This document shows positions 35,513-39,968 of a stretch of DNA of 64,000 nt, one piece after another. A program made the position numbers and the translations under genes. The DNA is taken from the NCBI GenBank assembly GCA_023920165.1, contig CP089274.1, positions 2,852,001-2,916,000 of the forward strand, in the 5' to 3' direction. Position 1 is the stretch's first letter; each line of letters opens with the position of its first letter. This DNA is from Curvularia clavata (taxonomy: Eukaryota). The notes under the pieces were generated by a model. That model made no database searches and was not told the DNA's origin. It was given only the letters and a program-made list of their open reading frames with translations.

Positions 35513-35631
35513 ACATACGACCATAGGCTCGAGAAAGCAGGATTCCCCGTTCGATCAATCATACTTAAGCTCGAGACCGGCGGACTAGTAGTCAGGTGGG
35601 TGACCACTGGCGAATCCCCGCTGTCGTATGT
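35513..35631 (+). rRNA. Dispersed 5S rRNA gene (variant type)
   Basis: 119 nt: ACATACGACCATA...TACTTAAGC...TAGTAG...GGGTGACCAC...GAATCCC...GTCGTATGT; 9-bp terminal helix; T-run Pol III terminator immediately after. Confidence 0.93.
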
Positions 35632-36008
35632 TTTTGGATTTTTGTTTGAATTTTTGTGTGAATCTTTTTGCTGTAGATATGTGCTACGACATAATGTAAT
35701 GTGATACTGTTAGACAGGTTTCTTCTCGAATACTTGACTTGTTTTCGAGACACGAACTGCGCTTGGTAGCCTATCCATTGTAAATACTCATTTAAGCTTG
35801 GAACAGGAGAATCGTCGCCGAGGGCGGAGCGGCTCGTCGAACGGCGGTTCGTCAGGCACAGGCACGCTAGAAGGCCATGCGAACACAGACCCTTGTCACC
35901 CGCAGCACATCACCGTCATTCATCCGCTCACCACCGCGACACGCTCCACAAGACTTCCGTCACAAAAGTGACAAGACGCACTCCACCTAGCCTCCACCGC
36001 CTTTGGCA

Positions 36009-37939: not shown

Positions 37940-38187
37940 GTTGACGGTATGTGCGGCGTGACTGGCGGGTTCGTGATGCTGTCGACGATCGTGAAGTCGA
38001 ACTTTGGGTGGTAGAAAATCGCTTGCATTGTGCGGAGGAACGTAACGCCGGCGTTAGCGTGCCAAGATGCCGGCGTTGACTTTTCTTTGCCGCCTGCGCG
38101 ACTTGACAACTTCTCGCATCGTTTTCCGCCATGGGCTGAACACCAACACAACACTCTCGCACAGGAGCGTGCGACGCAACCGCAACC

Positions 38188-39968
38188 ATGGAACAAAGTA
38201 GAAGCATTGGTCTCATCGGCATGGGCGACATGGGCAAGATGTATGCCCGACGCCTCAGCACTGCTGGATGGAAGTGAGTGCACTCGCGCGCGTGATAGCT
38301 CACATTCACCTGCTTTTGCAATTGGTAAGTTCCAGCCTCTTCTCCTCTCCCCTGTTATGATGACCGTGAGTGCATTTGGCTCGAGTACGGCGCCATGTCC
38401 ACGCTGTTGCCGTCTTGGTTTTCAGCAATTGGGCATGGTGTCGTCCATGATGTGAATTCTCGCTACCTAACTTTAAACAACTCTGAACTACACCCAAACT
38501 TTTCTGCATTGTTCATAGCTTTTGGCACGAACCTTGCTAACCAGTGGCTCACAGATCATTTTTAACGACCGGCTTGACTAACATGGTACTTTAAGAGTCC
38601 ACGCTTGCGATCTTCCGGACAAGTTTGATAAACTGGTGGAAGAGTTCAAGGACTTTGTAGGATAGCACTTTATGTAACCTGCTGAATGAACGCATGCTGA
38701 GACTGCGCCAGCCCAAAGTTGAAATTATGCAAAACGGCCATCTCGTGTCTCGGTGCAGCGACTACATCATCTACAGCGTTGAGGCGAAGAACATTGACGG
38801 AGTCGTGAAGGCTTTTGGTCCTTGTACGGTGACATGCATGCTCTTCAGATGACTTTGAACTAACATGTCTGCGTACAGCTACCAAGGTCGGCGCTATCGT
38901 TGGTGGGCAGACGTCTTGCAAAGCCCCTGAGATGGATGCCTTCAACAAGCATCTCCCCAAGGATGTCGGCATTGTCTCCGTGCACTCTCTTCATGGACCT
39001 GGCGTCGATCCAAAAGGCCAGCCGCTGGTGTTGATCAAGTACCGTGCCTCGGACGATGATTTTGCATTTGTGGAGAACGTCATGTCCTGTCTCGGGTCCA
39101 AACATGTCTATCTTACTGCTGAGCAGCATGACCGTATCACGGCAGACACGCAGGCTGTAACCCATGCTGCATTCTTGAGCATGGGCGGTGCATGGTATGC
39201 CAACAACCAGTACCCATGGGACAGTTCCCGCTATGTTGGTGGCATCGAGAACGTTAAGATGAACATTACGCTCCGCATCTACTCCAACAAGTGGCATGTC
39301 TACGCCGGCCTGGCTATTCTCAACCCGGACGCAAAGAGGCAGATCAAGCAGTACGCCGAGTCGGTCACTGAACTGTTCAAGCTTATGCTCGCGGGACAGC
39401 GCGACGAACTCCGTGAGCGTGTGCACATCGCACGCAAGGCCGTGTTTGGCGACAATGTAAACAACAAGAAGCAGCTACTACTACGAGACGATCTCCTCGA
39501 CCGATTTGCTCTGGGTACGATCCCAGAGAAGAAGCTCAAAAACAACCATCTCAGCTTGCTCGCCATGGTCGACTGTTGGTGGAAGCTAGGCATCGTGCCT
39601 TACGATCACATGATTTGCTCTACTCCTGTACGTTTTGTCTACTTTTTTTTCTATACGCGTTGAACACCAACTGATTCATGTAGCCCTCGCGCATGTGGCT
39701 CGGCATCACCGAGTACCTCTTCTGCAACCCAGCTCTACTTGAGGAAGCCATTGACACGGCCATTGACGATAATACATTCCGTGCCGACGATCTCGAATTT
39801 ACCTTTGCTGCGCGCGACTGGAGCTCTCGTGTCAGCCTGGGCAACTTTGAGGGCTACAGGGATAAGTTTGAGCAGATTCAGAAGTACTTTGAGCCAAGGT
39901 TTCCCGAGGCGACTAAGTTGGGGAATGAGATGATCAAGGTTATTTTGCAGAAGACGCAGGATGGATAA
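38188..39968 (+). CDS. TYR1: Prephenate dehydrogenase (NADP+)
   Basis: IGLIGMGDMGKMYA, VGGQTSCKAPE, VHSLHGP and HDRITADTQAVTHAAFLSMG; introns 38274-38595, approx. 38657-38711, 38825-38877 and 39628-39682. Confidence 0.95.
38353..38490 (+). ncRNA. snR13: Intronic box C/D snoRNA, snR13-like (guide for 25S rRNA Am2280/2281, yeast numbering)
   Basis: Box C ATGATGA 38357-38363; TGAGTGCATTTGGCTCGAGT (guide plus TCGA D' box, as recalled for yeast snR13) complementary to LSU GCCAAATGC; 14-bp stem 38387-38400/38431-38444; C' ATGATGT 38447; GCTACCT 38462-38468; box D CTGA 38483-38486. Confidence 0.85.

Follow-up and report, generated by a model that had tools for sequence, protein, structure and literature searches.

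A candidate intron-within-an-intron carrying an snR13-type snoRNA in the TYR1 gene of Curvularia clavata

Introduction

Fungal introns of complex architecture, which are removed in more than one splicing event, have been described in several forms. In Cryptococcus neoformans, spliceosome profiling has uncovered 13 cases of nested splicing (Burke et al.; bioRxiv 10.1101/224170), and stwintrons are well described in the Pezizomycotina (PMC5639578, PMC9024468). Stepwise splicing is also found in hosts of small nucleolar RNAs (snoRNAs)—in the Euascomycetes cluster III host (PMC3596301) and, in a nested or recursive form, in the Candida snR57-55-61 cluster (PMC5033589)—and snoRNA-associated introns appear to move as units by 'excision-and-insertion' (Luo 2013, PMC3596301). 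Here, we describe the first intron of TYR1 in the filamentous ascomycete Curvularia clavata. The gene lies on the plus strand of a stretch of 64,000 nucleotides (nt) of contig CP089274.1 (assembly GCA_023920165.1, positions 2,852,001 to 2,916,000), hereafter the window; all coordinates count from its first letter, and all features given below lie on the plus strand. The intron carries two complete sets of splice signals, the inner of which encloses an snR13-type box C/D snoRNA. The junctions of both sets are used in RNA, and both sets are conserved in TYR1 orthologues together with their geometry.

The locus shares features with each of the systems above and departs from each of them. As in the nested introns of C. 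neoformans, the inner intron need not touch the outer signals; unlike those cases, for which the available part of the preprint reports neither conservation nor a snoRNA, the inner intron of TYR1 is conserved and snoRNA-bearing. The C. neoformans example shown there was undetectable in polyA RNA, whereas the inner-spliced product of TYR1 is abundant enough to be assembled into contigs. With stwintrons, the locus has in common two nested U2-type introns in a filamentous ascomycete and a consecutive removal, the latter being proposed for TYR1. However, the inner intron of a stwintron interrupts the donor, branch, or acceptor of the outer one, which makes the order of the reactions obligatory, whereas the outer signals in TYR1 are all intact. 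The polycistronic snoRNA hosts of fungi likewise rely on stepwise splicing for snoRNA release and contain insertable intron units, but they are non-coding, and their introns follow each other with an exon size of zero or below, abutting or overlapping, or an intron lies within a snoRNA. In TYR1, by contrast, the snoRNA intron lies wholly within an intron of a coding gene and is flanked by 51 nt of outer intron upstream and 41 nt downstream.

The snoRNA itself belongs to a known family. Yeast snR13 directs the methylation of A2280 and A2281 in 25S ribosomal RNA (rRNA) and bears an unusual UCGA/CUCGA D' box (PMC5389607). Its homologue in Neurospora crassa, CD1, has 125 nt, the target 26S-Am2242, and the location 'Intron' (PMC2780460); the available text and supplements of that paper contain the CD1 sequence, and they name no host gene and mention no nested intron. 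How far an intronic snoRNA lies from the 3' splice site matters for its processing, and most of those in N. crassa are found 41–60 nt from the 5' splice site (Liu 2009, PMC2780460). A coupling between an intronic box C/D snoRNA and the fate of its host transcript is known from human genes, namely from SNORD2-EIF4A2 (PMC10324135) and from the NOP56 host (reviewed in PMC11028025). The resemblance to TYR1 is that the splice choice at the snoRNA determines whether the transcript is productive or stops prematurely. The human cases act via cassette exons and base pairing between snoRNA and intron, though, whereas no conserved snoRNA–intron helix was found in TYR1.

Our survey of open-access papers and bioRxiv preprints yielded no description of this locus, nor of a conserved, private snoRNA intron within an intron of a coding gene. 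Uninterrupted outer signals, a snoRNA cargo, a protein-coding host, and a conserved layout set the TYR1 intron apart from what is known.

Two complete splice-signal sets in one intron

TYR1 intron 1 (38274–38595) is 322 nt long. A preliminary description of the window, made from its letters, had read it as a nested intron and placed two sets of splice signals within it, and every signal is found at the position given there. The outer set consists of the donor GTGAGT (38274–38279), the branch motif ACTAAC (38577–38582, with the branch-point A at 38581), and the acceptor AAG (38593–38595). The inner set consists of the donor GTAAGT (38325–38330), the branch motif GCTAAC (38536–38541, branch-point A at 38540), and the acceptor CAG (38552–38554), 14 nt downstream of the branch motif. 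It delimits an inner intron of 230 nt (38325–38554), which divides the outer one into a 5' flank of 51 nt (38274–38324) and a 3' flank of 41 nt (38555–38595), which contains the branch site and acceptor of the outer set. Once the inner unit is taken out, 51 + 41 = 92 nt remain, the size that had been predicted.

The inner unit encloses the snoRNA closely. Its donor lies 33 nt upstream of box C, and 54 nt separate the end of box D from the inner branch-point A, close to the roughly 50 nt of the preliminary description. With the outer signals as reference, box C would be 84 nt away from its donor and box D 95 nt away from its branch point. For mammalian cells, Hirose and Steitz (2001) are reported to have found that a box D about 50 nt from the branch point is optimal. 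Since the inner unit is complete and keeps the usual box C/D distances, it is read here as the snoRNA's own intron.

Three other arrangements were considered and rejected. Two introns around a micro-exon would need a further acceptor in the 5' flank and a further donor in the 3' flank, and no usable one of either kind is present. This reading fails because the 5' flank, whose only AGs stand at 38278 and 38298, has no branch-like motif and because the single GT of the 3' flank (38586, GTACTT) lies only 10 nt from its end; this inventory agrees with the earlier judgement that there is no micro-exon. Recursive splicing through a zero-length exon would require a YAG|GT configuration, whereas TTG precedes the inner donor and no donor follows the inner acceptor; among the 17 orthologue rows introduced below, an AG before the inner donor is seen, by eye on the printed rows, only in L025. 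A stwintron, finally, is at odds with the uninterrupted GTGAGT, ACTAAC, and AAG of the outer intron, and with an inner joint (…GCAATTG|ATCATT…) that makes no signal; the ends of the inner intron keep at least 45 nt from the outer donor and at least 22 nt from the outer branch. What is found is the layout of a nested intron—two complete sets of donor, branch, and acceptor, with the inner set wholly within the outer.

The presence of such a set in a single sequence is by itself of limited weight. With strict motifs, an internal combination of donor, branch, and YAG arises in 40 of 5000 sequences obtained by dinucleotide shuffling of the intron, and in 10 of 792 tiles of 322 nt taken from the window, and with relaxed motifs in 314 of 5000 shuffles and 45 of 792 tiles. 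For one sequence alone, the probability of a chance origin of the inner set is low but not negligible. As it is only moderately low, the case for the nested intron rests on the RNA junction and on conservation.

Junctions in RNA contigs

The RNA sample comprises four runs from four studies (here X1, X9, X11, and X12) out of 22 public runs listed, and all of its records are assembled contigs. The mapping tool applies a rule of 31 letters to the shorter side of a junction. In two of the four runs (X12 and X9), contigs carry the inner junction 38324^38555, keep both outer flanks, and read on into exon 2. The joint is listed as 38323/38554, and a cut shifted by +1 gives GT..AG ends with 230 nt skipped. 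In X12—a declared metatranscriptome—a single contig of 330 nt joins 38069–38324 to 38555–38625, with 72 letters on the shorter side and one letter other than in the window. It runs from the 5' untranslated region through exon 1 and both flanks (51 and 41 nt) into the beginning of exon 2.

The mature junction 38273^38596 is likewise present in two of the four runs, as one contig in X11 (61 letters on the shorter side, with intron 2 also spliced) and one in X9 (30 letters). A mature junction as the sole one in RNA, the other finding that the preliminary description had named as counting against it, is thus not what these contigs give. The word shares of further runs (X2–X8 and X15) would fit retention or full splicing of intron 1 and are not counted as evidence. 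The mixed junctions 38273^38555, which had been named earlier as a third junction to look for, and 38324^38596 occur in the contigs of none of the four runs. The unspliced, the inner-spliced, and the fully spliced states of intron 1 all exist as RNA, and hence the predicted intermediate form is real.

Two further X9 records come from relatives. A contig of a relative about 95% identical contains exon 1 followed by 28 intron letters, 61 unaligned letters, and 3 intron letters followed by exon 2. The two exons would then be 92 letters apart, which equals the size of the remnant; for this interval, the tool itself reports 'between: not known'. The X9 joint 38281/38634 comes from a divergent relative.

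Conservation in TYR1 orthologues

A scan of metagenome contigs with box C and the guide returned 32 loci. In 24 of them, the snoRNA is hosted by the first intron of a TYR1 orthologue, and this intron occupies the same phase-2 site, following GG(N)TGGA(R). Seven loci were dropped as identical to another one over the 530 nt compared, and the remaining 17 rows—two of which are cut at the 5' end by a contig edge—were aligned with the window to give 18 rows. The protein encoded by exon 4 is 70% to 94% identical to that of the window's TYR1 across loci, and the outer intron spans 309–358 nt in the 16 complete rows.

The inner set is kept throughout. An inner donor stands 33–45 nt before box C in all 17 rows that reach that far (GTAAGT in 11, GTATGT in 3, GTAAGC in 2, and GTGAGT in 1), with GT and the G at +5 retained in 17/17. 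An inner branch motif follows box D by 51–59 nt in 18/18 rows, and a YAG lies 12–17 nt past the inner branch point in 17/18, L029 being ambiguous. The spacing hence varies within 13 nt to box C and within 9 nt to box D. Among shuffles, a donor falls into the conserved slot in 470 of 32000 and a branch with YAG in 239 of 36000. The inner intron measures 227–259 nt in the orthologue rows and the remnant 78–119 nt, and in every orthologue this remnant has a consensus-type donor and branch site. The signals also have few competitors. In most rows, the inner donor is the sole donor-like hexamer between outer donor and box C, and 16/18 rows have no branch-like motif after box D besides the inner and the outer one; L029 has three, and in L032 only the inner one was matched by the script.

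Mean pairwise identities over 14 distinct rows reach 0.80 for the inner donor, 0.64 for the inner branch site, and 0.76 for the inner acceptor, and 0.85 and 0.75 for the outer donor and outer branch site. The corresponding values are 0.31 for the 5' flank, 0.24 for the 3' flank, and 0.37 for the stretch between box D and the branch point. An unusually high value, 0.66, is found for the spacer between branch point and acceptor. Columns with little or no variation lie, apart from those of the snoRNA, in the inner donor, in the 3' splice region of the inner intron, and in the outer branch site, and one of them (T240) belongs to a block described below. The outer acceptor is AAG in 7/18 rows (the window and the six closest), CAG in 8, and TAG in 3. 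A lack of conservation of the inner signals, which the preliminary description had set down as a finding that would count against it, is not what the alignment gives, and the conservation of these signals argues that they are needed.

The snR13-type snoRNA

The snoRNA occupies 38353–38491, with approximate ends, as defined by its boxes, the identity of its guide, and its hairpin; the 5' end was modelled on that of N. crassa CD1, 5 nt upstream of box C. Box C, (A)TGATGA (38357–38363), and box D, CTGA (38483–38486), are invariant in 18/18 rows. Between them lie the guide with the D' box CUCGA (38380–38384), the C' box ATGATGT (38447–38453), and a conserved GCTACCT block between C' box and box D. 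All 19 guide positions after box C agree with the Rfam snR13 consensus. The match to the Rfam family itself (RF01223) scores 18.3 bits and does not reach the gathering score of 47; the Rfam model does not span the long internal hairpin, for which 15 pairs with compensatory changes are found among the 18 rows. Of the filamentous-type loci, 0/4 match Rfam snR13 at E ≤ 0.01.

The remaining 8 of the 32 loci have no TYR1 nearby and are AT-rich and yeast-like. Five of these were scanned with the snR13 model, and four reach at least 47 bits (170.4, 74.6, 54.3, and 53.7), the fifth falling just short with 45.6. They align with the window's snoRNA through the same box C, guide, CUCGAG, C'-like box, GCTACCT block, and box D, so that the guide found here is identical to that of loci with snR13 scores of 54–170 bits, with which it also shares the further blocks. 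S. cerevisiae snR13 and N. crassa CD1, too, have an identical box C, 5' guide, and CUCGA D' box, with GCTACCT and box D in common. However, snR13 of S. cerevisiae is an independent gene, whereas the copy in the window is intronic, has a longer internal hairpin, and stays below the Rfam gathering score. Judging by the identity of the guide, the window's snoRNA may have an snR13-like target in large-subunit (LSU) rRNA (Am2280/2281, yeast numbering).

Possible helices around the snoRNA were inspected as well. No conserved one that would order the two splicing reactions was found; RNAalifold on the 18 rows pairs only within the snoRNA. In the window, 38279–38288, just past the outer donor, complements the start of the snoRNA guide (38365–38374) over 10 base pairs and is paired in both the minimum free energy and the centroid fold, and the single-sequence fold as a whole is no better than that of shuffles (z −0.57; 29 of 100 shuffles fold as well). 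By eye, the window and L011 are the only rows with the full complement to the guide, and L001 and L014 have part of it. Before the inner acceptor, CTCAC (38548–38552) complements the GTGAG of both the outer donor and the snoRNA guide, and CTCAY is found there in 14/18 rows; L029 and L032, the two rows with a different outer donor, show no compensating change of CTCAY.

About 20–30 nt after box D, a block at 38507–38515 (GCATTGTTC) is conserved in most orthologues, with T240 invariant, within a stretch that has otherwise diverged. By eye, an imperfect pairing of this block with GAACCTTGC, which immediately precedes the inner branch site, seems possible; RNAalifold does not predict it.

Two-step splicing and other explanations

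The conserved inner signals, together with an inner junction that keeps both flanks, support the nested intron that had first been proposed from the letters. We lean, if only modestly, toward two-step splicing as a real productive route, in which the inner intron is spliced first and the remnant thereafter; and, held with the same slight preference, intron 1 of TYR1 would be an evolutionarily maintained intron-within-an-intron. The spliceosome would excise the 230-nt inner intron independently, as the splicing unit of the snoRNA, and the snR13-type snoRNA would be trimmed from the inner lariat, from which we infer it to derive. This excision would shorten the intron from 322 to 92 nt, an ordinary fungal size with its own donor, branch, and acceptor, and a second reaction would then take out the remnant and restore the TYR1 frame. 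Removal of the whole 322 nt in one step would be possible in principle and may run in parallel.

Several points weigh against this reading. The outer signals are intact, so that inner splicing is not mechanically required. The one X9 contig with the inner junction has 29 letters on its shorter side, just below the 31-letter rule of the mapping tool. A contig of 2260 nt in X1 keeps all of intron 1 with introns 2 and 3 removed, and no intron-1 junction is seen in this run; the contig may reflect intron detention or merged overlapping transcripts. In X12, only the inner-spliced form was assembled. Contigs show presence and neither levels nor absence, so that the gaps in cover in X11 and X12 and the missing mixed junctions prove nothing. 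The orthologue rows are related to one another and are not independent trials. That the inner-spliced RNA proceeds to mature mRNA is our inference, and the amounts of partly spliced and unspliced RNA, sufficient for assembly, fit a slow second step and a dead-end isoform equally well. To these comes the weak AAG acceptor of the outer intron, taken up next.

Some of these observations would also follow if the two sets were mutually exclusive alternatives, which is possible, albeit rather unlikely in our estimate. The outer pair would then yield TYR1 mRNA and the inner pair the snoRNA together with a dead-end transcript that stops at codon 30 and is degraded or retained; the inner intron would be selected for making the snoRNA without the enzyme, and the inner-spliced RNA would not be an intermediate. 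Such a scheme is in line with the inner-spliced, outer-retained RNA as the sole form in X12 and as a companion of the mature form in X9, and with the full retention of intron 1 in the X1 transcript. It is also in line with the AAG acceptor, which weakens the outer set in the 7 of 18 rows that comprise the window and its closest relatives. Further, an early stop at codon 30 or 42 is found in the unspliced, the inner-only, and both mixed products, as opposed to the 427 codons of the mature one. Premature stops had been predicted for the partial products, and they are present in every non-mature product. The uncoupling of snoRNA and host through alternative splicing and nonsense-mediated decay has precedents in human hosts (PMC11028025, PMC10324135); for TYR1, the preliminary description had raised a link to this decay only as something that may exist. 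Yet the remnant is a complete intron of 78–119 nt in every orthologue, nothing visible bars its removal, and the outer acceptor is a normal CAG or TAG in 11 of the 18 rows.

It appears improbable that the inner unit is a functionless relic—an old insertion whose inner sites are occasionally used as cryptic ones, with snoRNA and mRNA both stemming from one-step splicing of the 322 nt. The complete outer signals do permit such one-step splicing, an internal set is met by chance in about 1–6% of comparable sequences, and the nested example shown for C. neoformans went undetected in polyA RNA (bioRxiv 10.1101/224170). Against this stand the identities of the inner signals (0.64–0.80), which compare with those of the outer ones (0.75–0.85) and not with those of the neighbouring intron (0.24–0.37), the retention of GT and +5 G in 17/17 donors, a spacing that varies within 13 nt for box C and 9 nt for box D, and an inner-spliced RNA abundant enough for assembly in two studies.

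That the joint 38324^38555 is a genomic deletion variant or the product of template switching during complementary DNA synthesis is very improbable: its support does come from contigs only, but it has exact GT..AG ends at a consensus GTAAGT/CAG with a branch motif 14 nt upstream, an overlap of just 1 letter between its sides, two studies behind it—one of them a declared metatranscriptome—and the same sites conserved in orthologues.

Origin and significance

As to the origin of the nested arrangement, the most likely course is that a snoRNA-bearing intron was inserted as a unit into an older, short TYR1 intron. An insertion fits both the 'excision-and-insertion' behaviour of snoRNA-associated introns and two yeast-like loci, L002 and L010, with a single intron around snR13. 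By their signals, the snR13 there lies between one GTATGT, about 27 nt before box C, and one TACTAAC…TAG, about 46 nt after box D, an arrangement suggestive of a plain snoRNA intron in a different host, which may be non-coding. After the insertion, the outer signals would have been kept by the coding frame and the inner ones by snoRNA biogenesis, splicing efficiency, or both. Once nested, the outer signals could not be lost, because their loss would break the frame.

The complex introns known from fungi are mainly stwintrons, in which the order of splicing is forced, or nested events that were seen once by deep profiling and whose importance is unknown. The TYR1 locus offers a nested intron with a clear snoRNA cargo, conserved signals, and a partly spliced product that is visible in ordinary RNA data. 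This makes three ideas testable: that fungal intronic box C/D snoRNAs need a fixed distance to the branch point, that snoRNA-bearing introns spread as units into existing introns, and that stepwise splicing can make a coding host gene independent of its snoRNA. For annotation, it means that a gene model with a single intron of 322 nt conceals a second splicing event and a snoRNA gene.

A more far-reaching possibility, which we consider speculative and unlikely, is that the nested intron acts as a conserved device with two gates. Constitutive inner splicing would supply the snoRNA, and a regulated or 'detained' 92-nt remnant would set the balance between TYR1 mRNA and non-productive RNA. The remnant opens with an in-frame stop—a TGA at 38275–38277, inside the 5' flank of the outer intron—and ends, in the clade of the window, with the weak AAG acceptor. 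If such a device existed, TYR1 output could be set post-transcriptionally, for example by amino-acid supply, with the supply of snoRNA left untouched, and an RNA for ribosome biogenesis would be uncoupled from an enzyme of amino-acid biosynthesis encoded by the same transcript.

Host gene and surroundings

TYR1 is a gene of five exons, and the region shown contains its 5' part and the remainder up to the stop codon; the spliced coding sequence is open over 427 codons. Exon 1 (38188–38273) provides the ATG and a GxGxxG nucleotide-binding motif, is covered by RNA contigs, and ends in phase 2 (…GGA TGG AA|). Exon 2 (38596–38656) is bounded by the RNA-contig junctions 38273^38596 and 38656^38712. 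It is followed by intron 2 (38657–38711, 55 nt), exon 3 (38712–38823), and intron 3 (38824–38878, 55 nt), with RNA junctions for both introns. Exon 4 (38879–39628) bears the Pfam domain PDH_C, the prephenate dehydrogenase dimerisation domain, with 29.2 bits at a cut-off of 22, which makes the TYR1 label and a role as prephenate dehydrogenase a reasonable assignment. Intron 4 (39629–39693, 65 nt) was placed by its splice signals and the open frame, and exon 5 (39694–39968) ends with the stop codon at 39966–39968. With 55, 55, and 65 nt, the other three introns of this gene fall into the range of 45–130 nt that had been given for most introns here.

The X1 contig that retains intron 1 extends upstream of 38052 across a short intergenic region toward a divergent gene on the minus strand, whose ATG lies near 37942. 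Several short contigs (X1 record 2 and several of X9 and X11) match only the GxGxxG part of exon 1 (38206–38260), with 3–6 differences and unrelated flanks; these are probably other dehydrogenase genes or organisms and not isoforms of TYR1.

A search of the whole window at Rfam E ≤ 1 gave no other snoRNA, so that no control intron is available within it. At gathering scores, its sole match is a 5S rRNA gene (RF00001, 76.7 bits) at 35513–35632, also on the plus strand, which lies about 2.6 kb upstream of TYR1 in a dispersed 5S arrangement.

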